Source of the DNA: Candidatus Cloacimonadota bacterium
GTDB taxonomy: Bacteria; Cloacimonadota; Cloacimonadia; Cloacimonadales; Cloacimonadaceae
Reading direction: 5' to 3'
Length of the DNA stretch: 64,000 nucleotides
Assembly: GCA_035363155.1 (NCBI GenBank)
Contig: DAOSEN010000002.1
Span: 209,700 to 273,699 of the forward strand
Positions 44,098 through 58,524 of this stretch are shown piece after piece (position 1 is the first letter of the stretch; every line of letters begins with the position of its first letter). Below the pieces are notes generated by a model, which saw nothing but the letters and a program-made list of their open reading frames with translations, was not told the DNA's origin and searched no databases. The translations under genes and the position numbers were made by a program.

Positions 44098-46971
44098 ATG
44101 AAAGCAAGATTAATCTGGATTTGTCTGATTCTGTTGTCACTGAGCATTGTTTATGCAAATACCGGCTGGGAAGCCCCCCAGAGGAAAACCAGTCACCCGA
44201 TGCCCAGTGCGGATTTTTACCGCTGGAGCCAAGCCCGAGCCGATAGTGCTCATGGTTTTGACGTGCAAAAATACGTGATTGACCTCACGATCAATACCAG
44301 TAGCCAGCACATTAGCGGCAATGTCCTCGCTACTGTGGAAGCTACAGACGTCCTTCCCTTCATCAGTTATGAACTTGTCGGGCTTACCGTTAGTTCTGTG
44401 AAAGTAAATGGCATCATCAGCACTTTCACCCATACCAATGGCATCATCCAGATCCCTGTGAATGCCATTGCCGGACAGATCTTCACCACCCAGGTCTATT
44501 ACAGCGGCAATCCCCAGCTCAGTGCCAATCTCTACAGTATCGGCATGCATTTTGTCACAAATTCTGTCTTCACTATCTCCGATCCTGATGCCGGACGCCA
44601 ATGGTGGCCGTGTTATGACCACCCCTGGGATAAAGCCGTCGTGGATCTGCATATCACCATGCGCAACGATTGGAAAGTAGCCGCCAACGGACTGCGGCAC
44701 AGCATTACCGACAATGGTAATGGAACTGCCACCACCATCTGGCTGGGTGAACATCCCATGACCACCTATCTGGTTTGCATTACTGCCGGGCCTTATGTGG
44801 AGATCGCTCAGAGCGCTCTTGAAGGTGAACTGCCTATCCTCAGTTTCGTTACCCAGGCGCAGTACAACAATGCTATGATAGATTTTGCCCCGGTACCCGC
44901 CATGATCGATTATTTCTCTCAGATCTTTGGCCCCTATCCCTTTGAAAAATACGGGCATGCCACGGTAAGCATGAATACCTATGGTGCTATGGAACACCAG
45001 ACGATGACCACTCTGGGCAGCTATATCATCACCGGAAATCACACCCACGAGCTCACTATTGCTCACGAACTGGCACATCAATGGTATGGCAATGCGGTCA
45101 GTTTCTTGGATTTCAAAGATGTCTGGCTCTCGGAAGGTTTTGCTACCTATTCGGAACATTTATGGACAGACAAGGCCCTGGGCTGGGCTTCTGCCTGCGC
45201 CTATGTCCTGAGCAGTTACCACACTTACTACATGAACTGGGAAAATGCCAATGGAGCCGCAACAATCTACAATCCCAGCTTTTACAACTATTTCTCTCCG
45301 CCTTCCTATGAAAAAGGTGCCAGCGTCCTCCACATGCTGCGGCTCAAGATCGGCAATGCCAATTTCTTCCAACTCCTCTCCCAGTGGTTTGAGACCTACA
45401 AACACGGCAATGCCATCACCAGTGAGTTTCAAGCTCTGGCAGAATCCATCAGCGGTATGGACCTCACCCAATTTTTCCATCAGTGGATCTATGGCAATGG
45501 CATCCCCTCAGTGCAATACAGCGTCCTGAGCAAATCCACCCCGGAACCGCAGGTGAAAATCCTGGCTAAAAGCGCATCTCCCACGGCTACAGACTTCCAC
45601 CTGGAAGTTCCCTTCCGGATCGTGCACAGCACAGGTACAGACAGCCTCCTGGTGCACGCCACTCCCAATGGTGCCATAAACATCTTCACAGGCATCCCCA
45701 GCCCCGATGAGGTGATTGCGAATTACAACAATTGGACTCTGCTCCGGGGAATCACATCCGTAGCCCCCGTAATCACTGAATGCCTGGCTTCCAACGCCTC
45801 GGTGCTCTTGTCCTGGCCGGAATTTGGCTTTGGTGAGGGTTACCGGTATCTGCTCTGGCGCAAAACCACTACAGAGCAGACCTGGCAGCAGATTACACCC
45901 ATCCCTCTAACCCAGACCACATATACCGATACAAACGTGCAAAACGGCATCACCTACCAGTACCTCCTGCGCGCCATAGATTTGGATGATTTTGTCAGCC
46001 AGCCCTCAGCCCTTGCAAGCGCTACTCCGGTAGTCTTCAGCTTTGCCAGCTATCTCCTTGTCGTGGATGAATCCCGGGATGGCAATGGCACCAATATCAA
46101 TCCCAACGACCAGATGGTGGATGATTTTTATGCCGCTGCTCTGGCCCCAATCCCCTATTCCACCTGGGATATCGCCAGCCAGGGAGCCCCACCCCTCAGT
46201 ACCCTGGGAAACTACAAGATCCTCTTCTGGCACGATGATGACTTTTCGGAGAATCTCCTGCTCAGCCACCAGGGCCTGCTGTCCAGCTATCTGCTGGGAG
46301 GCGGCAAGGTCATCATTTCCGGCTGGAAAACCGCCTCGGTACTCATGCAGGAGTTTATCAACCGCTTCTCCCCCGGGCTGGAAATTTACTATGACAACGG
46401 AGCCAGCCTCATCAGCGCTGAGAGCCAGAACTATCCCACCCTGCTGGTGGATCCAAACAAACTGGTAGCCCCCTGGAATGGCATGCTGCCCATGATCTAC
46501 ACCTTTGGGGGTGATCTCCCCAGCCTCTATACAGCCAATATGCTTCCCAGCGCCAATGGCCAGGGACGCAGCCTCGCCTTTCATCAGGGCAATCTCTGCT
46601 TCTTTGGCTTCCCCCTCTACTTCATGCAAGCCGAAGGGGTGCGCAGCCTGATGCAACAGCTCCTGCCCGAGCTCCATCCTGTCTCCAGTGAGGATCCTCT
46701 CGCCAGCCCCAATGCCATGCACCTGAGCGCCTATCCCAATCCCTTCAATCCCAGCACCACCATCTCTTTCAGCCTGCCCCGTTCCGGAACCGCCACGCTG
46801 AATCTCTACAATCCCAAAGGCCAGAAAGTCCTCTGCCTTGCCACCGGAGATTTCCAGAAGGGTACCCACAGCGTGCAGCTCGATGCCAGCAGCCTGGCCA
46901 GCGGGGTTTACCTGCTCCGGCTCGATACCGCTGGACACCGCTTCACCCGGAAAATCACTCTGATGAAGTAG
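44098..46971 (+). CDS. M1-family aminopeptidase with Fn3-like and T9SS C-terminal sorting domains
   Basis: HELAHQWYGN and WLSEGFATY zinc motifs. The C-terminus is AYPNPFNPSTTISFSLP...LNLYNPKGQKV...GVYLLRLD...KITLMK. The start is taken at MKARLIWICLILL (44098) rather than the ORF-track 43906. Confidence 0.85.
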   Translation: MKARLIWICLILLSLSIVYANTGWEAPQRKTSHPMPSADFYRWSQARADSAHGFDVQKYVIDLTINTSSQHISGNVLATVEATDVLPFISYELVGLTVSSVKVNGIISTFTHTNGIIQIPVNAIAGQIFTTQVYYSGNPQLSANLYSIGMHFVTNSVFTISDPDAGRQWWPCYDHPWDKAVVDLHITMRNDWKVAANGLRHSITDNGNGTATTIWLGEHPMTTYLVCITAGPYVEIAQSALEGELPILSFVTQAQYNNAMIDFAPVPAMIDYFSQIFGPYPFEKYGHATVSMNTYGAMEHQTMTTLGSYIITGNHTHELTIAHELAHQWYGNAVSFLDFKDVWLSEGFATYSEHLWTDKALGWASACAYVLSSYHTYYMNWENANGAATIYNPSFYNYFSPPSYEKGASVLHMLRLKIGNANFFQLLSQWFETYKHGNAITSEFQALAESISGMDLTQFFHQWIYGNGIPSVQYSVLSKSTPEPQVKILAKSASPTATDFHLEVPFRIVHSTGTDSLLVHATPNGAINIFTGIPSPDEVIANYNNWTLLRGITSVAPVITECLASNASVLLSWPEFGFGEGYRYLLWRKTTTEQTWQQITPIPLTQTTYTDTNVQNGITYQYLLRAIDLDDFVSQPSALASATPVVFSFASYLLVVDESRDGNGTNINPNDQMVDDFYAAALAPIPYSTWDIASQGAPPLSTLGNYKILFWHDDDFSENLLLSHQGLLSSYLLGGGKVIISGWKTASVLMQEFINRFSPGLEIYYDNGASLISAESQNYPTLLVDPNKLVAPWNGMLPMIYTFGGDLPSLYTANMLPSANGQGRSLAFHQGNLCFFGFPLYFMQAEGVRSLMQQLLPELHPVSSEDPLASPNAMHLSAYPNPFNPSTTISFSLPRSGTATLNLYNPKGQKVLCLATGDFQKGTHSVQLDASSLASGVYLLRLDTAGHRFTRKITLMK

Positions 46972-47035
46972 GGAACTGAGTTCACACATCGTCTGCAAGA
47001 TCGGTTTGAGCCTATTCGGCTGGCTCTTGTTTGAA

Positions 47036-47098
47036 TTACGCTATCAATACGCTATCATTACGCATCGCATACGTATTGATGGCGTAATCATAGCGCAG
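47036..47098. repeat. REP-like palindrome of the GCTATCAATACG family
   Basis: ATTACGCTATCAATACG / GCTATCATTACGC pair with CGTATTGATGGC / GCGTAATCATAGC. The core is shared with 865-911. It lies directly 3' of a gene. Confidence 0.55.
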
Positions 47099-47129
47099 CA
47101 GGATGTTGGGCCATGGAGCAGGAAAGTAG

Positions 47130-47290
47130 TATAAAGTATCACCCAAACCTGCAAATGGGTATCACCTGTCACAGTGGTCGTAAAGGTTTATGGTGTGGCG
47201 AGATAGATAGGACTTGTTTTAGACTGTGTCACAGTGGTCTTTGGACGAAGTTGGACGTTTTTGTATCAGGGATTCTGCAAATTTGGACTG
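47130..47290. repeat. Transposase-proximal transposon end with spaced CTGCAAAT..GTATCA sites
   Basis: Sites at 47130-47141 (terminal), 47141-47165 and 47261-47285. Confidence 0.7.
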
Positions 47291-47921
47291 TTTTCAGGGT
47301 ATTTTCAGACCATCGAATTTGTAAAAACTATTAGCTCATTGTTTCCGCTGCGCCGTTGGTGCGTTTTCCCGTATCAGTAAATTACTCCCGGTCTGAATAG
47401 TGTCCATATGACTGGTTCACAAGTCTGATCCGGTGAAAACATGCTTATCTCACTCAGCAGCAAACATATGAGCTGCTTTTTAGGGCGTTTTGCCTCAGAG
47501 CATTTTCTATTTACGGGTTGTTGTCTTCCTGGCATTATTATGTGAAATATGGGGGAAGCAGATTTATGCTAAAAATCTCCCGAAATCTCCATTTGTTGGC
47601 GGAAAGGACTTCCCAAGTTATTGCCATGCAGCAGAGTAGCACCCAGCAATAACATGATGGAGGCGCTTATGAAAGCGACCAGTTACGAGTTAAAACAGAG
47701 GGCGTTCGGGTCAGACCACTGTGACACGTCGACCACTGTGACAGGTGTCACAGTGGTCCCGGAAAGGCGAAAAAACCCGGAGATGACGACCAATACTGGG
47801 TTTGAGCACTGTGACAGATGTCAAGGTGGTCCGAAATCAGGGAAATATGCCTCAAATGCAGATCAGTAATGAATTCAAGCACTGTGACACACAGAATAGC
47901 AGTTTTAATGTCGCAGTGGTG
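47167..47921. promoter_or_regulatory. Nine copies of TGTCACAGTGGTC (half-sites and palindromes) in the non-coding leader of the transposase gene
   Basis: - Forward copies at 47167, 47227, 47746, 47819 (2 mismatches) and 47909 (2 mismatches).
- Reverse copies at 47714, 47731, 47804 and 47877.
- 47731-47758 is a perfect 28-bp palindrome, GACCACTGTGACA-GG-TGTCACAGTGGTC. Confidence 0.75.
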
Positions 47922-47954
47922 CCAAAACCCGCTTATGTCCCGAGGAGGTTTAGG

Positions 47955-49898
47955 ATGAGCAAGCTCAAAGTAGAGGAGGTGAGAAAATCATCTCACATAC
48001 AAGAGCTCCCTGATGAATCCAAGCACTCCGAATTCATCGACTTTACACCTCGTGATAAGTTACCACTCAAATACGACCGAGAAGCCAGATTAATTGGACA
48101 TTTCTGCAACCTCGTCATCCGCAGGTTAGCCATATGCGGATCTAAGGTGGATGAGTGGCAACGGATCGTGCAGGAATACAACAGCGGCCAGTTAGTGCCA
48201 GAGTTGTATCAGATCAGAGGAGAACGCAAGGAACGGGCACTGAGGGTCTGGATCGACCAGTATGCCAAGTCTGACCGGGATATGTTCGCCTTGCTGCATA
48301 AGAGCAAGAACCTTACTCACAGCCGCAGGGTAACCGAGACCGAGACTAAGGTGCTACTCAGCATTCTGCTGCATCCCAACCAAATCACCATTGGAAGCGC
48401 CATCAACATGCTCAAGACCCAAGCCCGGCTGGGCTATTACGAGTCTCCAACCAGTAAACCAACGCTGAGACGCTGGTGCACTGAATGGATGCAAGACAAT
48501 CTAGCGACCTGGGAGCTAACCAGAAAGGGCAGCAAGTACGTGGCAGAGCACATAATCAAGACTATTCACCGAGATTCCAGACTACTGAGAGTGGGACAGG
48601 TATGGGTGGCTGATGGACATACTCTGGCCTTCGATATCCTCAATCCTCAGACCGGGAAAGCCCAACGCATGACCATGATCATGGTCTTCGACTGGGCGAG
48701 CCGCTATCCGGTAGGAGCCACGCTTGCCTTCTCTGAGGACAGCCATCACATCCAAGTAGCCTTCCGTAACGGCTTCCTTAACTGGGGCGCCTTGCCGGAG
48801 GCGGTGTATCTCGATAATGGCAAGGCATTCAGATCTAAGCTATTCCATGAGCATTGGGATGGGCACGATCTGGAAGTGGAGTTAGGTGGCATTTTCCCGA
48901 AGTTAGGCATCGAAGCCCACTTCGCTGAGAGCTATAATGCCAAGGCCAAGGTGATCGAGCGGTTCTTCAGGACCTTCCAGGAGCAGTTCGAACGCTTCAT
49001 CTCTTCCTTCAGAGGTTCCAACATCGCTAATAAACCATCAACACTGATGCGTAACGAGAAGTGGGCAAAGGCCTTGTTCAAATCACAGCCACCTACTATA
49101 GATGAGGCGATTCAGATGATCGGCTTCTATATCAGACACGTTTATGGCGAAAACGTGCACAGCAGCCTGAACGGCCAGACTCCCTGGCAGGTATTCAGTT
49201 CGGCTCCTCTGCCACAGGATAGGTTAGTACAGCCCGATAGGCTCAACTTCATGATGCTGGCTACCGAGCGCAAGGCGATCCGCAGTGAGGGCATTGTGTT
49301 CAATAAGCTACTCTACTGGCACGAAGCCCTTATCGATAACATCGGAAAACCGGCGATCATCCGCTACGACTTTGCTGATGCCAGGTGGATACTCGTCTAC
49401 GATACCAAAGACAACTATATCTGCCAGGCTGAACTCCGCAGAAGCCAGCATCCCTTTATTCATATCGATAAGAGCAACCCTGTAGCCCATCGGGAGCTCA
49501 ATAAAGAATACACCCACATCAAGAAGCTGCAACGACTGACCGAGCAACATGCCAGAGACTTCGTGATCAGTAATCAGGAAGCGGTGGATAGGCTGCTCGA
49601 ACCCTACCTGCAGGCAGCAATCGCATCCGATAACCCGACCTTCAAACAAGGCTCCATGATAGCACCTCCGGAACCGGGAGCCGAGCAGTTCATGGAGAAC
49701 CTGGAGCAGGAACTGGTCAAGGACCTGCCTGAACTTGAATTTGTACCCCCCGAGCAGCAGAACTATGGATCGGATGAGCAAGTCCCGGTCCAGGATGATA
49801 ACCCGGCTGAGGAACCCAAACTACAGCCGGAAGAGATTGAAGACGATGATGACGATAGTTTCTACTCAATGCTGAAGACAGTCGGCATCATAGATTAA
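47955..49898 (+). CDS. DDE transposase of the Mu/TnsB/TniA type
   Basis: Catalytic contexts VWVADGH, YLDNGKAF and AKVIERFF give D-67-D-48-E spacing (MuA is D-67-D-56-E, from memory). The C-terminal tail is acidic. The start is moved to the ATG at 47955, which has a GGAGG SD. Confidence 0.8.
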   Translation: MSKLKVEEVRKSSHIQELPDESKHSEFIDFTPRDKLPLKYDREARLIGHFCNLVIRRLAICGSKVDEWQRIVQEYNSGQLVPELYQIRGERKERALRVWIDQYAKSDRDMFALLHKSKNLTHSRRVTETETKVLLSILLHPNQITIGSAINMLKTQARLGYYESPTSKPTLRRWCTEWMQDNLATWELTRKGSKYVAEHIIKTIHRDSRLLRVGQVWVADGHTLAFDILNPQTGKAQRMTMIMVFDWASRYPVGATLAFSEDSHHIQVAFRNGFLNWGALPEAVYLDNGKAFRSKLFHEHWDGHDLEVELGGIFPKLGIEAHFAESYNAKAKVIERFFRTFQEQFERFISSFRGSNIANKPSTLMRNEKWAKALFKSQPPTIDEAIQMIGFYIRHVYGENVHSSLNGQTPWQVFSSAPLPQDRLVQPDRLNFMMLATERKAIRSEGIVFNKLLYWHEALIDNIGKPAIIRYDFADARWILVYDTKDNYICQAELRRSQHPFIHIDKSNPVAHRELNKEYTHIKKLQRLTEQHARDFVISNQEAVDRLLEPYLQAAIASDNPTFKQGSMIAPPEPGAEQFMENLEQELVKDLPELEFVPPEQQNYGSDEQVPVQDDNPAEEPKLQPEEIEDDDDDSFYSMLKTVGIID

Positions 49899-49907
49899 GG
49901 AGGATCA

Positions 49908-50624
49908 ATGAAACCAAACAAGCTCGTGCAAATCAAGAACGTGATCAAGACTGATGCCTGCATTCAGTTTCTGATGAACCGCCCCAAGACCGAGATGGTG
50001 GGACTGGGACTGATCTATGGCAAGCCCGGATTGGGCAAGACCACCTATGCCAGCCGGATCGCCTTTATGAGAGGCTACATCTATATGCGGCTGGAGGCTA
50101 CCAGCACTCCCAAGTCCTTCGCCAGCGACCTCTTAACCGCATTATACCGCCGGTTCAAACTGGGAGAGTACATCCCCAGTGGCACAACCAACAACCTGTT
50201 CAAATACTGCCTGAAGATCTTGGAAGACAATCCAGAGACGGTGATCGTGATCGATGAGATCGACTATGCCTTCAAACATGAAAAGCTGTTGGGAGCGATC
50301 CGGGACATCGTGGATGAGACCTTGACCATAGTCCTTTTAGTAGGTATGCAGGATGCCAAGACCAAGTTGGCCGGGATCAACAAGCACTACTTCGACCGCT
50401 GCAACTACTTCTATGAGTTCAAATCCGTAGGCAAGGACGATATCCGCAAGATAGCCAGGGAAGTAATGGACATCCCGGTCGACGAGGCAGTGGTTACCAA
50501 GATTGATGCACACTGTAGCGGTAACCTGCGCAGAGCCATGAAGATCATGTACATCCTCGAAGGTGCCAAGCTGAAGAATCCCAACCTCGACATCGCTTCC
50601 ATAGATCTGGGTAGGGACTTATGA
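49908..50624 (+). CDS. AAA+ transposition ATPase (TniB/MuB/TnsC-like)
   Basis: Walker A GKPGLGKTT and Walker B VIVIDEIDY. The SD is TAAGGAGG, and the gene starts 9 nt after the transposase stop. Confidence 0.75.
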   Translation: MKPNKLVQIKNVIKTDACIQFLMNRPKTEMVGLGLIYGKPGLGKTTYASRIAFMRGYIYMRLEATSTPKSFASDLLTALYRRFKLGEYIPSGTTNNLFKYCLKILEDNPETVIVIDEIDYAFKHEKLLGAIRDIVDETLTIVLLVGMQDAKTKLAGINKHYFDRCNYFYEFKSVGKDDIRKIAREVMDIPVDEAVVTKIDAHCSGNLRRAMKIMYILEGAKLKNPNLDIASIDLGRDL

Positions 50625-51277
50625 CCAGTAAGGAACTCGTACTCAACTTCGTCAATCAATACCGCAAGCCCTTTGATGCCAATCTGATCGCCGAGATGAC
50701 CGGCCTTGGTGTGAACGATGTTGAGCCCATCATCAGCGATCTGGTTGCCGATGGCACCATTAAACGGATCAGTGACCGGGAAGAGATCTATGCCCGTAGC
50801 AACCGCTTCATCACCAAGACGGCCAATCAAATGCGTCCCAACTGGTACTTCGATCCCCAGGCAGCCCTGGCTCTACTCAATCTGATCGAGCAGGGCAGCT
50901 ACACATCGATCAGAGGCATAGCCGCTGACTTTGGTAAGAGCCGCCAGTGGGTGTTCGTCTATCTGGAAGCCCTAGCATCCATGGGCGTAATCGGACTCAA
51001 TGAACATGGCTACTGTGTGCTCACCAAAAAGGACGTAAATAAGGTCGGCATCAAGATCAATCCAAGCATCCTCCGGCAGTTAAGATCTCATTGCTCTGAA
51101 CTGCGTAAACAGCAAAATCTACAGGAAAAGCTCGCAGCCTGGCAGCTCAAGTTAGAAGGCAAGGAACCCCTCGAAAAGGAGATAGAAGCCTTTGATAGCT
51201 TTAATCAGGTAACCATGCAAGCACTGAAGATTCTGCAACGCAAAATGACACTTGATGTTGATATTGCGATAGAATAG
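50621..51277 (+). CDS. 218-aa protein with two winged-helix-like segments and a coiled-coil tail; third gene of the transposition operon
   Basis: ATGA overlap with the ATPase gene. LIAEMTGLGVNDVEPIISDLVADGTIKRI and IRGIAADFGKSRQWVFVYLEALASMGVIGL both resemble wHTH. No zinc-finger (TniQ) motifs are present. Confidence 0.5.
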   Translation: MTSKELVLNFVNQYRKPFDANLIAEMTGLGVNDVEPIISDLVADGTIKRISDREEIYARSNRFITKTANQMRPNWYFDPQAALALLNLIEQGSYTSIRGIAADFGKSRQWVFVYLEALASMGVIGLNEHGYCVLTKKDVNKVGIKINPSILRQLRSHCSELRKQQNLQEKLAAWQLKLEGKEPLEKEIEAFDSFNQVTMQALKILQRKMTLDVDIAIE

Positions 51278-51591
51278 TATGGGTTTTTGCATGACAAGAT
51301 ACCTGGCTGTGCTGAGTTAACAGATTTTTCTCCTTTACAGAATTACTCTTGAAGACAAAGTGGACTTTATGTATGGAATACCTAAGCTCAGCCAAGTTAT
51401 CAACAAGGATTATGGATGTATGACTTCGAATAATACCCTTGGTTCTATTGCAGATTCGGTTAAGGAAACCGATAGCTATATCCTGTTGCCTGAAATAGAG
51501 CAGCAAGGAAAAAACATGTTTGCACAGAAGTCAGTAGTCGAAGCAATAAACAAGGCTTTTATGAAAATCTGTTTAACGGCAGGAGAAATTG

Positions 51592-51960
51592 TGACCCTGT
51601 CCCATTTTTTACACCACGTGTAAGTTGACACGTTTGCTATCGACATTGTTTTCATAGTTTTCTCTGAATTTCGCTGGAGGCATGTAGTTCAGGGCACTGT
51701 GGGGTCGATTCATGTTGTAATCCAACCGCCAATTCATGATCACATCTCTTGCTTCCAGTAAATCTCCAAAACAATTAAGGTCAAGACATTCTTTTCTGAA
51801 CTTGCCATTGAAGCTCTCGACAAAGGCATTCTGTTGTGGCTTCCCGGGAGCGATGAAGCTGAGATCAACCTTGTTATCCTGTGACCATTTGAACATGACT
51901 GAGCTACGGAATTCGGGGCGGGGAGACCGTAAAAAACAAAATGCTGCTGATGAAGTAGTA
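51592..51960 (-). pseudogene. 3' remnant of an IS3-family insertion sequence (C-terminal rve fragment plus one terminal IR)
   Basis: The minus-strand fragment ..IAPGKPQQNAFVESFNGKFRKECL...NMNRPHSALNYMPP is the end of an IS3-type OrfB. On the plus strand TGACCCTGTCCCATTTTTT starting at 51592 is the complement of the element's terminal inverted repeat, so on the gene strand the IS would end in ...CA, as IS3-family ends do. The N-terminal two-thirds of the transposase is absent. Confidence 0.7.
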
Positions 51961-52021
51961 TAACCATTAAGTGCGGAGCGGCGCTTGTCGCCGCTCCATA
52001 CCCATTAAACAGGAAGTCCAT

Positions 52022-53653
52022 ATGAAGAAGTATATACTGATGTCAATGCTCCTGATACCCTTGCTGGTATTTGGGATTACCAGACATGTGTCCCTGGATG
52101 GAACTCAGGACTATACGTCCATTCAAGCAGCTATCAATGATGCCCAAAGCGGAGATGTGGTATTGGTGCATCCAGGCCGCTATATTGAAAACATCGATCT
52201 CTCTAATAAACAGAATATTACTCTGACATCTATGGAATACACCACCGGAGATTCTACCTTCGTTAGCTCAACAATCATCGACGGCTCCGCAAACGCCAAT
52301 TCCACAGTTCTATTCTATGAAAACGCCGTGAATATCACTCTCAGAGGGTTTTCGATTACGGGTGGCAGAGGATATGATTACTTTAATGGAGCTTCACCTC
52401 GTCAGATATTCGGAGGTGGTATATTCTTCCACGCCAACTGTAGCGGTATTCTTCTTAACCTGCATGTGTATGGAAACAAGGCATCTATGGGGGGAGGGGT
52501 AGCTATTCTTCAGACCAATAGCGTTTCGCTTTCGAATGTCAACATCTACAACAATATGGCTCGTTATATTGGAGGCGGGCTTGATATCGGCAGTTCACCT
52601 CAGGGTGGTTCGCCTACTATAATCTTTTCCCAAACCGACAGATGCAGCATATACAACAATTTCGCCCAGTGGGGCATGGATATTCATTGGCATTATATTC
52701 ATTATGGCACGGTTTCAGTCTATCTGAAGAAGTTCACTGTGCCCAGTTATGAGCGATATTATGCCGATCATTATGATGCTGGATACGACGCATCTCCTTA
52801 TGTGGTGTTTGATGTTCAGGAAGCCTATCTGCAGCCGGTTGATGCGGACATCTATGTAAGCCCCCAGGGAAGTGATAGTAATGATGGGCTGAGCCCTAGC
52901 ACCGCCCTAAAAACTCCCTCGCTGGGCATACAGAGAATTGCCAGCAATCCAGCTCAACCCCAGACTGTCCACCTTATGGCTGGAACCCATCACAACGTCT
53001 TTATGGATGAGTATATCCCCATTGCCATTAAGGATTATACAATTCTGCAGGGTGTATCCGAATCTCAAACAAGGCTTTACGCCGCAAATCTGATCCGGGG
53101 CACAGGTGTAGTCACCATGGGAATCCAGCGGTATGGGATGCGGATGAAAAATGTGTCCATCTCCACAAGCATGGCATCTGCACTCTTCAGTTGGGAGATT
53201 TTTGATTGCCATTATGAAAACATTACTCTCTACACAGAATCTAAAAACAACAACATTCCTGAGAGATATTACTCGTCTGCGTCATTAGACATAGGTAATA
53301 TAGTTATGGATAATGGTAAGCACTTGTTCTCCGTTGTAAGTCTTGGTGGAGGACAAGAAAGCGAAACAATCGTTACCCCGGTCATGTCAGCAATGATCTA
53401 TCCCAATCCAATGCGCGGTAATACCAATATTGAAGTTAATACCACTGCCAAAAGTGTTGTTGACATCAGTATATATAATCTTAAGGGGCAGTTAGTTAGA
53501 AAAATCGATTCCGCTGAAATCTTAAAAGGCAATACATCCTTTATCTGGAATGGTTTAGCTGATGATGGCAAGCCTGTTGCACAAGGAATATACTTCTGTA
53601 GGATAAAGTCCCAAAACTATCTATTGACAAAGAAGCTGATTGTCTTAGATTAA
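52022..53653 (+). CDS. Secreted right-handed beta-helix protein with a T9SS C-terminal domain (transposon cargo)
   Basis: Signal peptide MKKYILMSMLLIPLLVFG. Beta-helix context ITLRGFSITGGRG..GGGIFF. The C-terminus is IYPNPMRGNTNIEV..ISIYNLKGQLV..GIYFCRIK..KKLIVLD. Confidence 0.8.
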   Translation: MKKYILMSMLLIPLLVFGITRHVSLDGTQDYTSIQAAINDAQSGDVVLVHPGRYIENIDLSNKQNITLTSMEYTTGDSTFVSSTIIDGSANANSTVLFYENAVNITLRGFSITGGRGYDYFNGASPRQIFGGGIFFHANCSGILLNLHVYGNKASMGGGVAILQTNSVSLSNVNIYNNMARYIGGGLDIGSSPQGGSPTIIFSQTDRCSIYNNFAQWGMDIHWHYIHYGTVSVYLKKFTVPSYERYYADHYDAGYDASPYVVFDVQEAYLQPVDADIYVSPQGSDSNDGLSPSTALKTPSLGIQRIASNPAQPQTVHLMAGTHHNVFMDEYIPIAIKDYTILQGVSESQTRLYAANLIRGTGVVTMGIQRYGMRMKNVSISTSMASALFSWEIFDCHYENITLYTESKNNNIPERYYSSASLDIGNIVMDNGKHLFSVVSLGGGQESETIVTPVMSAMIYPNPMRGNTNIEVNTTAKSVVDISIYNLKGQLVRKIDSAEILKGNTSFIWNGLADDGKPVAQGIYFCRIKSQNYLLTKKLIVLD

Positions 53654-53783
53654 CCAAACCAGCTTGTTGAAGCTATTAGGCGGGGGTTCGTCCCCGCCTG
53701 ATAGTGACAATCAATGGCTATGAAAACGACATGACGTTCAACAAGCAATCATACCATAGAATTATTATGGATAGGACTATATT

Positions 53784-56117
53784 ATGAATAAATATTCAGT
53801 GATAATACTGATGTGGATAGCACTGGGGGCTTGTTCAATAAAGGCAGGGATAATCGTAGTCGCGTCCGATGGCTCGGGTCAAGTTTCATCAATTCAATCG
53901 GGGATAAATATGGCTGCAGTTGGTGATACTGTGCTACTCTCACATGGAGTATGGTCTGGAGTTGCGGTTATCGACAATAAACCCATAACAATTGGAAGTT
54001 ACTACATTATTGATGGCGATACTACTCATATTACTCAAACTATCATAGATGGGGAAGACACACGAACTGGCATTATCATCAAAAACTGTGGTGGGGCTGT
54101 CGATACTCTAAGTGTAATTGGCTTAACAATAAGAAATTGCAGGAGTAATTGGTACCCCCATACATCTGATTACTCCATTGGGGGTGGCATTGGCATTGGA
54201 TTATCTGTAGTTAACGTGACAAGATGCGTGATTTATCATAATAGAGCCTATTTTGGAGGAGGGATAGGAGTTTCTCGATCATTTGTATATCTATATGGCA
54301 ATGAGATATACTCTAACAATGCCATTACATCGGGTGGAGGATTAAGTGGGCTTGGTTATAACAACATGTACATCTACTTCGATACCGAACGCCGTAACAG
54401 TATATATCTTAATAATGCCTCAAGAGGTTGTGATATCAGTTATGCATACGACAACATTCCTACCTCAGTTTATCTCAATAGAGGATCAGTTGACTATTTA
54501 AACCAGTATTTCTATTTTCTCCCCGATCAAACACCCGTATTCATCAATCAGCCTATGATTGTACAGGTTAACCAGGATCTTTGGGTCAGTCCCGATGGAG
54601 ATAATGATAATGACGGAGCATCTCCCCAAACGCCTTTACAAAATATCTCTTATGCTTTATCTAAGATACAGACATCCAGTAACACTACCCGCACAATTAA
54701 TGTGATGCCGGGGGTGTATTCTTGGAGTCAAACCGGTGAAGCTTTGCCTCTGCAACTGAAGAGTTACGTAAATTTGATTGGCTCAGCAATGGATGATGTC
54801 ATACTTGATGCTGAGCAATACGGAACATTTATCAGCGGAAGAGATGCTCAGGACTATATGAGTATTAAAAACATGACTTTGACTAACGGACACTCAACAC
54901 ATTATTATTTATTCTATCTGGACGTTGTTGTGAGTGGCAACACCAATGATATAACCGTGGAGAACATCCATATAAGAGACTCATGGGCTAAATCCGCAGC
55001 TTTAGTAATCGCATCCTGTTATAATATTACAGTAAACAATCTCATCATAGAGGATTCGCAGGTGGGGATTGGATTCTTTATATCTTGTTATGAGACTGGA
55101 TACTTTTCGAATTTCAGGGTGCAACGGCTAAGCCCCACAAACATAGACGCATACAATACATTCTGCCAGAGTGGAGGTATACAAAAGCCGTTAAGCGCTT
55201 CATCGCTTTATACTATCATCAATATATCTAACTTCTTGATAACGGATAACGTTGATACTTCTCAATTTTGGGAGAATATGACAAGTGGTTTGGCAATCAG
55301 TGTAGAGGGCGGAAACTGCGACTTGAATGTTAACAACTGCACCATAGCCAACAATAGCACTACAACCGAAGGTGCAGGATTCGGAATAAACTTGGAGAAT
55401 TGTAATGCGCAAGTGACTAATACTATAATCTCGGGAAACACTCCCTACGAAGTGGCAATGTTCTCTTATGACGAATCCACCTTTGCTGATGTTTCATTTA
55501 ACAATTGCCTCGTAACTGGCGGTAGCGATAGCTTCTTTGTCTTGGGTGGGGACATTACCCATACTTGGGCAGATGGCAATATGTTTGGATCTCCGTCTTT
55601 TCTGGGTGGAGATACTGACGATCCATTGTATTACAGCCTTGCAACAAATTCACCTTGTATAGACACTGGCACACCAGACACAACAGGGCTTGATCTCCCC
55701 CTCTACGATCTTGCGGGTAACTGGCGAATATGGAATGGTAGGATAGATATGGGCTGCTATGAATACGGTTCTGAGCCGTGGGTAAGCAATGATGATCCGG
55801 TAGTACCGGAGATACCGGCCATAAAACTGGTCGCATATCCCAATCCCTTCCAGACGTTTTCTAACATCAAAATATCTATACCGATTGAATACAGCAACAA
55901 AATGACTGGCATAAGTGAAGCGAGCATTGATATTTATAACATCAAAGGCCAGAAAGTGAAGGCGTTTTCCTTTGACCCAAGAAGTTCCCTCGAACAGGTC
56001 ATAACGTGGGATGGTAAGGATCAAAATGGAAACAACTGCCCCAGTGGTCTATACATTATAAATCTCACAATAGCCGGTGAACATGTAGCAAACAGAAAAG
56101 TAACTCTAGTTAAGTAG
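53784..56117 (+). CDS. Secreted right-handed beta-helix protein with a T9SS C-terminal domain (transposon cargo)
   Basis: Signal peptide present. Beta-helix context LTIRNC..GGGIGI..GGGIGV. The C-terminus is AYPNPFQTFSNIKISIP..IDIYNIKGQKV..GLYIINLT..RKVTLVK. Confidence 0.8.
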   Translation: MNKYSVIILMWIALGACSIKAGIIVVASDGSGQVSSIQSGINMAAVGDTVLLSHGVWSGVAVIDNKPITIGSYYIIDGDTTHITQTIIDGEDTRTGIIIKNCGGAVDTLSVIGLTIRNCRSNWYPHTSDYSIGGGIGIGLSVVNVTRCVIYHNRAYFGGGIGVSRSFVYLYGNEIYSNNAITSGGGLSGLGYNNMYIYFDTERRNSIYLNNASRGCDISYAYDNIPTSVYLNRGSVDYLNQYFYFLPDQTPVFINQPMIVQVNQDLWVSPDGDNDNDGASPQTPLQNISYALSKIQTSSNTTRTINVMPGVYSWSQTGEALPLQLKSYVNLIGSAMDDVILDAEQYGTFISGRDAQDYMSIKNMTLTNGHSTHYYLFYLDVVVSGNTNDITVENIHIRDSWAKSAALVIASCYNITVNNLIIEDSQVGIGFFISCYETGYFSNFRVQRLSPTNIDAYNTFCQSGGIQKPLSASSLYTIINISNFLITDNVDTSQFWENMTSGLAISVEGGNCDLNVNNCTIANNSTTTEGAGFGINLENCNAQVTNTIISGNTPYEVAMFSYDESTFADVSFNNCLVTGGSDSFFVLGGDITHTWADGNMFGSPSFLGGDTDDPLYYSLATNSPCIDTGTPDTTGLDLPLYDLAGNWRIWNGRIDMGCYEYGSEPWVSNDDPVVPEIPAIKLVAYPNPFQTFSNIKISIPIEYSNKMTGISEASIDIYNIKGQKVKAFSFDPRSSLEQVITWDGKDQNGNNCPSGLYIINLTIAGEHVANRKVTLVK

Positions 56118-56532
56118 TAAAATTGCCGTTTATATCGCCATTTCATAGAAGAGGCTGAGTGGCTGAGAAAACAGCACTGCAGTTTCATCTTATCTGCCCC
56201 ATACTTGTACAAAGGGTGAAACTGGATTCGCACAAACGGTGATAACAGATTTGCATAAAGGTTGAAACTCTGTCCGACCAAAAAACCAATCCGAAGGTAT
56301 TAGACCGATTGCTGTTGGCGAAGTTGTTCTCCGGCATATACTCCACTATTATAGTGATTCCTTTGCAGAATTTTAGTACTATCTCTTCATTAAGCCACTC
56401 GAACATATTTTCACGTATGGTCAGGGCAGCAATTTTGGTCTGAAATCATAATATCCAAAAATAAACCCCCAAAAGTCGGCACCAAGTCTTAGAATCTCCG
56501 TCTAACATATAAACGCTTTAAAAGGAGTTCGT

Positions 56533-56748
56533 ATGTTAAAGAGATCGGTGCTTGTTCTGGCAGTGCTGTTCGTCATCACGTTTTTGGCGGCTTCAGAGAT
56601 TGATTACTCAGCGATAGACCCATTCACGCTACCTGAGTATCTGGGTTCGCTAAACGACCCAGGAGTTGAGATCAGGTATGAGGATTCCGAAGGTGAGTAC
56701 ATCATAATCGAAATTGGCGACATCATTTATGTATTCTATGCCCTGTAA
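56533..56748 (+). CDS. Small (71 aa) secreted or membrane-anchored hypothetical protein
   Basis: Strong SD (AAAGGAG, 6 nt upstream) and an N-terminal hydrophobic signal, MLKRSVLVLAVLFVITFLAAS. Confidence 0.5.
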   Translation: MLKRSVLVLAVLFVITFLAASEIDYSAIDPFTLPEYLGSLNDPGVEIRYEDSEGEYIIIEIGDIIYVFYAL

Positions 56749-56898
56749 AGTCTTGGGGCATATCTCAAATATTGATTCTGCCACAAAACCTCAATAGAGT
56801 GATAGAAAAGAGTACAATTAGATGTTCTTGGTTAATGTGGGAAAGAGTCAAAAGAAATCATTACCAAAACTAATATCCAACTCACAAATGGAGGAAAA

Positions 56899-57090
56899 AT
56901 GAAAAGCTACATACCCCTTAGGTCATTGCTCGTTATGGTCATGCTAATTGCAGGAACACTGTTATCTGCGACAACAGTTTACGTAGTAGTAAACGGAGTG
57001 TATCACGATAAAGGTATAATCACCATAGATGTAGTTGCCAATGATATGATGGGCATCATCTGGAATATATTTTATCCGCCTGCAGGCTGA
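56899..57090 (+). CDS. Small (63 aa) secreted or membrane-anchored hypothetical protein
   Basis: SD is TGGAGGAAAAATG. The N-terminal hydrophobic segment is LRSLLVMVMLIAGTLLSA. Confidence 0.45.
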   Translation: MKSYIPLRSLLVMVMLIAGTLLSATTVYVVVNGVYHDKGIITIDVVANDMMGIIWNIFYPPAG

Positions 57091-57164
57091 AGGGATATCC
57101 TTAACTCATAAAGTGCTATTGATGAAATAGGTACATTGCCAGTCCGGGGATTTCAGATAACTTG

Positions 57165-57305
57165 ATACTGGATTTGCAGAAACCCTGATACTGGATTTGC
57201 AAAAACCCTGATACCAATTTGCAGAAATCCTGATACTGGGGTCTCACTAAAAACAGCGATTTGCAGCTAAAGTGATACTATTTGCAGATTTACTTGATAC
57301 TCTAT
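57165..57305. repeat. Distal transposon end with closely packed GATAC..ATTTGCAG sites
   Basis: Three head-to-tail 23-bp units, (C)CTGATAC(TGG/CAA)ATTTGCA(G/A)AAA(C/T), at about 57170, 57193 and 57216. Further copies lie at 57238 (partial), 57281 and the terminal 57292-57305. Confidence 0.75.
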
Positions 57306-57444
57306 AAGTAGATTGTTGGCTGCATGGCTGGAGGAAAGCCTTCGGCTGTTTTTTACTTGACAATCCTGCATAACGATCAAATCTGTAAAATAGTATAACA
57401 GGCTTTCAATAGTAAGAAAAATCGATCCTCGCCAAGGAGAATAT

Positions 57445-58524
57445 ATGAAACAAGCTGCATTCTTCCTGCTTATGCTTATGCTCTGCTCGATAGCCCCTGC
57501 GCAGTCCGCACTTCAGGATTATACTTTTGCTTATTCGGTCGGTACCTATGAAGAGATCACCGGAGGCTTGCTCTTGGGGACAGAATCCAATGATGAACAG
57601 AGGTTTTTGGATTCCTTATCGTTGGATGGAAGTCAAATCATGGTTCGAGGACCTGGTTTCCCTATCGGATTTGAGTTCAGTTATGCTGGCAGTACTTTTG
57701 ATCGTCTGGCAATCAACACCAATGGCTGGATTTGCCTCGGGCAAAGTTCTTTGGGGCAATTCGCTGTTGTCATGACATCCAGTAGTTACATTAATACACC
57801 ATTAAGCACGATATCCACTACAAATTTCGGCGAAAACGTCCAGCTTGTTGCCAGAATTGCATCTTTTGCACGAGATCTGGAAGGACAACCAGGATCTTCC
57901 ATCATGATCAAGACTATAGGAACATCTCCCAATCGGATTTGTGTAGTTCAATGGAAGAATTACAGACGAAGAACTACCTCTGGAGATAGCTTCAATTTCC
58001 AGATCAGGCTGCATGAATCTAACTCCATGATTGAGCTATCTTATGGAACTATGACTGCAGCATCTTTGTTCTCCCTACAAGTGGGATTACGAGCAGCACC
58101 AATTGATCCTGTTAGTAACTTTTCCGTGAGGACTACAACAGATTCATCTGGTCACAATTGGGATCAATCTATACCGGGAATCACTGCTGGAGCAATAATG
58201 AGGATTTCACCTACCGTCTACCCCCTTCCCGGCACCAGGTTCACGTGGACTCCTCCCAGCGCATCCTCAATTCCTCTGGCTCCGCAGAATCTCAGGATCG
58301 AAATCATCGCAGCGGACGTGCATCTTAGCTGGGATGCGGTAGTTCAGGATTGCGAGGGAAATCCCATCCTTGTAGATGCTTATACCATATATTACAGTGA
58401 GAGCGCTGATCCCGAGGCTCAGTATGAGCTCCTGGGCAGCAGTGACACCACTTCCTACGTCCACGAAGGCATTGGTACTACCCAGCCCCGGGGCTTCTAT
58501 AAGGTATATGCCGTAACTTTTTGA
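57445..58524 (+). CDS. Secreted hypothetical protein with a C-terminal Fn3-like domain
   Basis: Signal peptide ..SIAPAQS and SD AAGGAG. The C-terminus is APQNLRIEII..VHLSWDAV...GFYKVYAVTF. Confidence 0.6.
   Translation: MKQAAFFLLMLMLCSIAPAQSALQDYTFAYSVGTYEEITGGLLLGTESNDEQRFLDSLSLDGSQIMVRGPGFPIGFEFSYAGSTFDRLAINTNGWICLGQSSLGQFAVVMTSSSYINTPLSTISTTNFGENVQLVARIASFARDLEGQPGSSIMIKTIGTSPNRICVVQWKNYRRRTTSGDSFNFQIRLHESNSMIELSYGTMTAASLFSLQVGLRAAPIDPVSNFSVRTTTDSSGHNWDQSIPGITAGAIMRISPTVYPLPGTRFTWTPPSASSIPLAPQNLRIEIIAADVHLSWDAVVQDCEGNPILVDAYTIYYSESADPEAQYELLGSSDTTSYVHEGIGTTQPRGFYKVYAVTF

Follow-up and report, generated by a model that had tools for sequence, protein, structure and literature searches.

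A Mu-like element and its probable early control region

Within the window, by which we mean the whole 64,000-nucleotide stretch of DNA that was analysed, positions 47130-57305 are occupied by a 10.2-kb Mu-like transposon, and the 825-nt stretch at 47130-47954 is probably its early control region. The element is bounded by imperfect terminal inverted repeats of 27 nt (right partner at 57280-57306), carries end sites of 22-23 bp with the form GTATCA-N8-TGCAAAT at both ends, and is flanked by a 5-bp target duplication, AGTAG, located at 47125-47129 on the left and directly past 57305 on the right. The features of the control region and of the core genes behind it are as follows.

47130-47340, plus strand: left end (attL), with end sites at 47136-47156 and 47263-47283, two motif copies between them, and TTGGAC repeats
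47341-47598, no strand: non-conserved filler of 258 bp, carrying the "terminator-like" hairpin at 47456-47481
47599-47679, plus strand: near-invariant block GCRGAAAGGACTTCCCAAGTTATTGC...GTAGCA...GGAGGCGCTTATGAAAGCGAC, with a Shine-Dalgarno sequence (SD) at 47659-47663 and a start codon at 47669
47669-47869, plus strand: remnant of the array frame, 66 codons (MKATSYELKQ...)
47714-47921, both strands: seven-copy motif array, with copies at 47714, 47731, 47804 and 47877 on the minus strand and at 47746, 47819 and 47909 on the plus strand
47804-47816, minus strand: merged motif copy at a deletion, a single copy where the related loci L011 and L012 have GAGCACTGTGACA-43 nt-GAGCACTGTGACA
47942-47957, plus strand: internal SD GAGGAGG with the ATG at 47955, a conserved second start, which in the nearest relatives, where the gene is intact, shares the frame of the upstream ATG
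47955-49898, plus strand: MuA/TnsB-type DDE transposase, short form of 647 aa (Pfam Mu-transpos_C, PF09299, 1.5e-14, and rve; phrog_310, 4e-76)
49908-50624, plus strand: MuB-like AAA+ ATPase, 238 aa (AAA_22, TniB; phrog_296 "DNA transposition protein", 2e-23)
50621-51277, plus strand: third core protein, 218 aa, its start overlapping the ATPase stop, modelled as two winged helices and a coiled-coil hairpin

The element was classed as Mu-like on a DDE transposase with the Mu C-terminal barrel, a MuB-like partner whose gene adjoins the transposase gene, and a 5-bp duplication with subterminal sites. No structural genes of a phage body were found in the 10.2-kb element, the cargo of which consists of genes for T9SS-type surface proteins. 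Relatives lie on viral contigs of 30-42 kb (IMG/VR), with the transposase near one end in many, and the related locus L019 encodes a CI-like repressor and has a weak match to a terminase small subunit; one small L019 ORF also gave a weak match to phrog_66, "excisionase and transcriptional regulator". The attL block is 80-85% identical to that of L019 and of the paralogues E2 and E8, and the genome around the window, a Cloacimonadota MAG, contains about nine related transposase genes. A literature search for Mu-like elements of Cloacimonadota, a phylum known almost solely through metagenomes, found none described, and the control region is delineated here for a new family in that phylum, made up of Mu-like transposable phages and derived transposons. 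About 0.9 kb inside the right end, at 56225-56269, there are two end-site-like 22-bp repeats which may be an older or alternative right end.

Copies of a 13-base motif at the left end

The motif TGTCACAGTGGTC, 13 bases in length, occurs with at most two mismatches in nine copies, starting at 47167, 47227, 47714, 47731, 47746, 47804, 47819, 47877 and 47909. Over the whole window there are 10 matches against 1.26 expected (about eight times chance), a count reached in none of 100 shuffles. An earlier note on this DNA, made by reading the letters, had listed nine copies, and we recovered all of them where it had placed them, between 47167 and 47921, together with the perfect 28-bp palindrome at 47731-47758, the extra copy at 47714, both other inverted pairs, and distances of 73 and about 81 bp between pair centres. 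Its observation that the motif is absent from the distal end also stands, the sole further match (56037, with two mismatches) lying inside a gene, as does the transposase ATG at 47955, which is preceded by GAGGAGG at 47942-47948. Two of the copies are direct and lie in attL, at 47167-47179 and 47227-47239, 60 bp apart; the seven-copy array is 585-792 bp from the left end.

A third short repeat, TTGGAC (TTTGGACG, GTTGGACG and TTTGGACT), occupies 47240-47292 in attL, past the motif copies and before the second end site, and is kept at the same place in the E4-E7 subfamily, the array motif of which (CTTGGACA) resembles it. Elsewhere, a solo left-end fragment with motif copies and no transposase nearby was seen at G000 C16:8354-8509, and an isolated ATATCACCGCTGTCACAGTGGTC lies inside a gene at G000 C16:4858, similar to the hybrid of end site and motif at 47160-47179.

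Conservation of the motif and its subfamily variants

The earlier note had made its reading depend on conservation of the motif in related elements, and such conservation was found: motif and layout are common to about 55 related elements, with occurrences in 54 loci of other genomes and 80 IMG/VR viral loci, and the motif changes with subfamily. The motif and layout of the window are repeated in the paralogues E2 (76% identical) and E8 (63%): adjacent to the first end site is a pair of direct copies at 60-bp spacing, and about 490 bp further on come inverted copies whose starts are 32 bp apart, in units spaced by 90 bp. Paired attL copies at the 60-bp spacing are present in L011-L019, L035, L044 and L061 as well as in these two paralogues.

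The subfamily-specific variants are TGTCACAGTG, TGTCAAAGTG, TGTCACACCG, TGTCCAAG(C/T)G, and TGTCAGTGG or TGTCCAGTTT, and in most subfamilies the attL copies are of the same variant as the array. Three variants occur within the single genome of the window, one in E1/E2/E8, one in E3 and one in E4-E7, which makes a host factor unlikely as the reader of the motif and an element-encoded one likely. Between relatives, divergence within the array is 10.9% in the motif cores versus 37.2% in the spacers, and the positions of the copies relative to the ATG (nt 46, 63, 78 and 136) are constant across subfamilies. The number and orientation of copies differ widely between subfamilies, and those of E5, L058 and L063 have direct copies only; as a result, neither a palindrome nor an RNA hairpin can be a requirement.

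At one locus, L014 (CAZVXH010000087.1), all array copies are TGTCAAAGTG while both attL copies are still TGTCACAGTG. This mismatch may reflect a recombinant left end or a reader accepting either base; it makes the co-variation imperfect, and part of that co-variation could have arisen through recombination homogenising the repeats. Several viral contigs of about 31 kb from IMG/VR (L068, L070 and L073) end roughly 200 nt upstream of the transposase match, inside the array, and the motif repeats may be what breaks the assemblies of such contigs.

A reading frame that stays open across the array

Alignment of 21 loci, with transposases sharing 48-96% identity, shows the block at 47599-47679 to be conserved, and the 21-mer GGAGGCGCTTATGAAAGCGAC at its end (47659-47679, with the SD and the ATG at 47669) is almost invariant. 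The preceding stretch of about 70 nt, 47599-47667 (GCRGAAAGGACTTCCCAAGTTATTGC...GTAGCA), is near-invariant even across subfamilies with proteins only 48-60% identical, and is probably an early promoter with its 5' UTR, or else a host-factor site. No match to the sigma-70 consensus was found in this stretch, a promoter consensus scan returned matches no more often than chance, and RNAalifold detected no covariation in the invariant block upstream of the ATG (covariation term -0.14).

When the frame is read from the equivalent of the ATG at 47669, no stop codon is met in the first 95 codons in 54 of 55 distinct loci, i.e., in 30 of 31 genome loci and in all 24 distinct viral loci, with the window as the single exception. 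The other two frames contain 248 and 181 stops in the genome loci and 213 and 125 in the viral loci. The earlier note had seen no credible ORF here and had called the leader non-coding, which is wrong for its last third (about 290 nt). It had also named a conserved leader ORF in homologous elements as a finding that would speak against its reading; such an ORF exists, and the array, read as translated, belongs to the first gene.

The product of this frame differs among relatives. In the viral or phage-type loci the frame forms the N-terminal ~95 codons of a protein of ~200 aa, the C-terminal half of which is an HTH_17/HTH_23-like domain. In E2-type elements it is a 122-codon ORF ending 8-10 nt beyond the transposase ATG, and in some relatives it is fused to the transposase to give 686-785 aa. 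The nearest relatives, L011 (96%) and L012 (95%), have a frame continuous with the transposase, yielding 761 aa, and a junction RRLRM-SK equivalent to the internal start is seen in relatives.

Substitutions in the array frame are distributed over the three codon positions as 731:818:941, versus 1372:809:4989 in the transposase core; in upstream non-coding DNA they are distributed as 1090:1073:1060. For the spacers alone, the ratio is 116:121:152 (p = 0.053, from 12 separate pairs chosen within subfamilies). An open frame combined with nearly even changes over codon positions indicates that the array stretch is translated and that its amino-acid sequence is hardly constrained. Constraint thus appears to act on the DNA motif and on the openness of the frame, with the array-frame protein evolving almost neutrally. 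The arrangement is an unusual one, an operator/enhancer-like array within a frame that is kept open while its protein drifts.

A 56-bp deletion in the copy in the window

DNA alignment showed that the copy in the window lacks 56 bp that are present in L011 and L012, and that the missing segment is flanked by direct copies of GAGCACTGTGACA. The deletion shifts the frame, leaving the 66-codon ORF at 47669-47869 and a transposase that can be started only at the internal GAGGAGG/ATG of 47942-47957. As judged from these alignments, the copy in the window is a deletion derivative, and the first gene of the intact element begins at the equivalent of 47669. The annotation is corrected accordingly, in that the transposase here is without its upstream start, lost via a deletion between repeats.

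The filler, the hairpin and the repressor module

The L019 leader aligns to 47130-47340 and 47599-47817 only, 47341-47598 being unrelated. This filler occupies the place of a minus-strand gene for a CI/LexA-type repressor in phage-type relatives. In L019, E3 and E4-E7, a repressor gene of this kind (XRE HTH plus S24 peptidase) separates attL from the array; in L019, E3 and E5 the array sits between the repressor gene and the HTH domain. The phage-type order is attL, repressor, promoter block, site array, HTH, A, B and third protein. No remnants of the repressor gene were found in the window leader beyond the shared promoter block. Presence of the repressor/HTH module is mixed within one transposase clade (L018 and L019 versus E2 and L015-L017), and with both kinds of element nested in a single clade, the module must have been lost or gained recently and repeatedly.

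In the middle of the leader the earlier note had pointed to an intrinsic-terminator-like hairpin, AGCAGC-10 nt-GCTGCT followed by a T run, at 47456-47481. The sequence is there, but its role as a terminator did not hold up: the stem is 6 bp with a 10-nt loop, its z is -0.74, and 44 of 200 shuffles fold as well. A terminator scan found none, and the hairpin is no more stable than expected by chance. It is not kept in the paralogue E8, and E2 keeps only the 3' arm and the T run. The short RNA that had been suggested to end at this hairpin likewise found no support, the hairpin being non-significant and situated in non-homologous filler.

Candidate readers of the motif

Both the winged-helix protein of 218 aa and the transposase remain candidate readers of the motif. 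The gene for the former is present in 50 of the 64 loci examined. Its model (pLDDT 84.6) has two winged helices and a coiled-coil hairpin, a predicted fold that would suit a dimeric DNA binder, and a Foldseek search of it against the PDB returned only generic tandem winged-helix matches (such as SelB and ScpB) with TM-scores of 0.2-0.27. In the model of the transposase N-terminus, residues 1-33 are disordered and are followed by helical DNA-binding domains at 38-119 and 128-203. A third domain resembling the enhancer-binding I-alpha domain is not in this model, and the two modelled domains would be enough for a bipartite end site.

Changes of motif variant were mapped on trees of the core proteins, requiring four (the minimum) on the transposase and ATPase trees and six on the third-protein tree, the discordant nodes of which are weakly supported. 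Of the substitutions private to the TGTCAAAGTG subfamily, the transposase has 21, with 10 in its DNA-binding region, the ATPase four and the third protein one. This pattern leans toward the transposase as the reader; the attL copies of L014, however, are unchanged. In phage-type relatives the repressor is a further candidate. Its recognition helix reads S-x-N-S with TGTCAC variants and mostly S-x-A-S with TGTCCA, a correspondence that is confounded by phylogeny.

Comparison with known transposable elements

In Mu, the enhancer is found about 1 kb in from the left end, where it overlaps the operators O1-O3 and is built of two MuA site clusters (PMC3145075). The array described here is placed similarly: upstream of A and B and 0.5-1 kb inward from the left end, its short sites are specific to the element and form two clusters. 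The Mu order of attL, c, O1-O3/enhancer, ner, A and B is paralleled by the phage-type relatives, in which the array has a repressor gene pointing leftward on one side and an HTH gene pointing rightward on the other. As in Mu, the clustered sites are located between the left end and A, at what corresponds to the repressor-ner junction. A MuA/MuB-type pair of transposase and ATPase and the 5-bp duplication are further points in common.

There are also differences from Mu. The sites lie inside a translated frame, and two further copies are in attL between the end sites. The repressor of the relatives is CI/LexA-like (XRE HTH plus S24 peptidase) and not like Mu c, and the transposase model has no third, I-alpha-like domain; a separate transposase domain akin to the DNA-binding domain of the repressor, as expected of a Mu enhancer, was not found in that model, the relatives' repressor being of the XRE type. 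The copy in the window has neither a repressor gene nor a gene at the ner position. Of the analogy to the Mu operator/enhancer drawn by the earlier note, the context fits, with phrog_310 and phrog_296 matches, the 5-bp duplication, viral contigs and the repressor and HTH flanks of relatives; the untranslated leader and the terminator that came with it do not.

At the right end of Tn7, TnsB-binding sites overlap the tnsAB promoter. As in Tn7, putative sites near the transposase promoter could autoregulate, and the ends of the element are asymmetric. Unlike Tn7, the promoter-proximal motif here differs from the end sites GTATCA-N8-TGCAAAT, and no TnsA or TniQ is present. The Tnp and Inh proteins of Tn5/IS50 are made from two in-frame starts, and the two conserved in-frame SD/ATG starts of the present family (the equivalents of 47669 and 47955) could similarly give a long and a short product. 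In contrast to Tn5/IS50, the N-terminal extension is nearly neutral and not a DNA-binding domain.

Interpretation and alternatives

We consider the array to be, probably, a set of putative sites resembling the Mu operator/enhancer, placed in a translated frame that is broken in this copy by the 56-bp deletion. What we observed comprises conservation and co-variation of the motif, a frame kept open, near-neutral change across its codon positions, the deletion itself and a context of Mu type; binding by a protein, the identity of that protein and a regulatory or enhancer role are the parts that we infer. The control region would then be made up of four parts, namely attL with two motif copies, the 258-bp filler, the promoter and ribosome-binding block, and the translated array of about 290 nt. 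The motif would act as DNA, bound by a protein that the element itself encodes, much like the operator/enhancer of Mu, and its copies may connect the left end with the early promoter region to serve repression, transpososome assembly, or both. Since the element in the window has no repressor gene, an operator role would call for a different binder or for a repressor provided in trans. The frame through the array would stay open with its amino-acid sequence nearly free, the array serving as the N-terminal half of the ~200-aa HTH-ending protein in phage-type relatives and being fused to the transposase in the nearest relatives. In this copy, recombination between two direct motif copies would have removed the 56 bp and broken the frame, the outcome being a 66-codon upstream ORF and a transposase starting only at 47955.

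An array inside an open frame raises the testable question of whether translation is coupled to occupancy of the sites. A dual-use module, with the sites placed deliberately inside a translated frame whose protein sequence would be of no consequence, is unlikely but deserves mention. Ribosome traffic set off at the invariant start and site occupancy might then interplay, for example if coupled ribosomes helped RNA polymerase through bound protein, or recombination between copies might switch the first gene, toggling it among long, short and broken forms.

A version of the earlier note's reading, in which all 825 nt are untranslated, a dimeric repressor uses the palindromes as classical operators and the hairpin marks the end of a short RNA, seems improbable. 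The inverted pairs do exist, and the frame in the window is just 66 codons long and consists largely of repeats. However, the homologous frame is open in 54 of 55 loci behind an invariant SD and ATG, and the window is exceptional because of its 56-bp deletion; arrays of direct copies (E5, L058, L063) make a palindrome unnecessary, and the hairpin is non-significant and within non-conserved filler.

Could the motif instead be a by-product of a protein repeat, in which a functional (D/E/K)HCD...VTVV domain, such as a metal-binding one, is what selection maintains? The frame stays open, the copies read HCD and VTVV in it, and the spacers show a slight third-position excess (116:121:152, p = 0.053). 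Yet substitutions are spread nearly evenly over codon positions, unlike in the transposase core, the 13-mer is present on either strand and in two different phases of reading, the pair in attL is outside any frame, and the encoded residues vary freely (HCD, HFD, RCD, QCD). We regard this as very unlikely, and we judge just as poorly the proposal that the inverted copies form RNA hairpins in the early transcript that control translation or attenuation. The pairs fold at -32.7, -15.0 and -16.2 kcal/mol, with z of -3.5, -2.0 and -2.7, but such folding is common to any inverted DNA repeat. Moreover, the left halves are systematically GCAC and the right halves GTGG, which leaves a G.G mismatch; subfamilies with direct copies only are unable to form hairpins; the attL copies are upstream of the conserved promoter block; and no Rfam match at the E-value threshold was found over 46900-57600.

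Site I of a serine-resolvase res site is 28 bp with inverted half-sites, and the three inverted pairs, the first of them also 28 bp, could be taken for the three subsites of a res-like resolution site used by a site-specific recombinase. This is extremely unlikely: no Pfam recombinase match, such as an adjacent resolvase gene would give, was found among the three core proteins, two large cargo proteins and two leader ORFs that were scanned, nor any recombinase match among the scanned L019 proteins, and copy number and orientation vary widely between subfamilies.

Palindromic sequences outside the left end

Just outside the left end of the element, at 47035-47095, there is a strong REP-like palindrome (-25.4 kcal/mol, z = -4.5). 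At L013, a related tandem palindromic array of GTAGCGTAGCATTCCGATGCTACG units occurs at about 1026-1575, roughly 0.4 kb outside the left end of that element.
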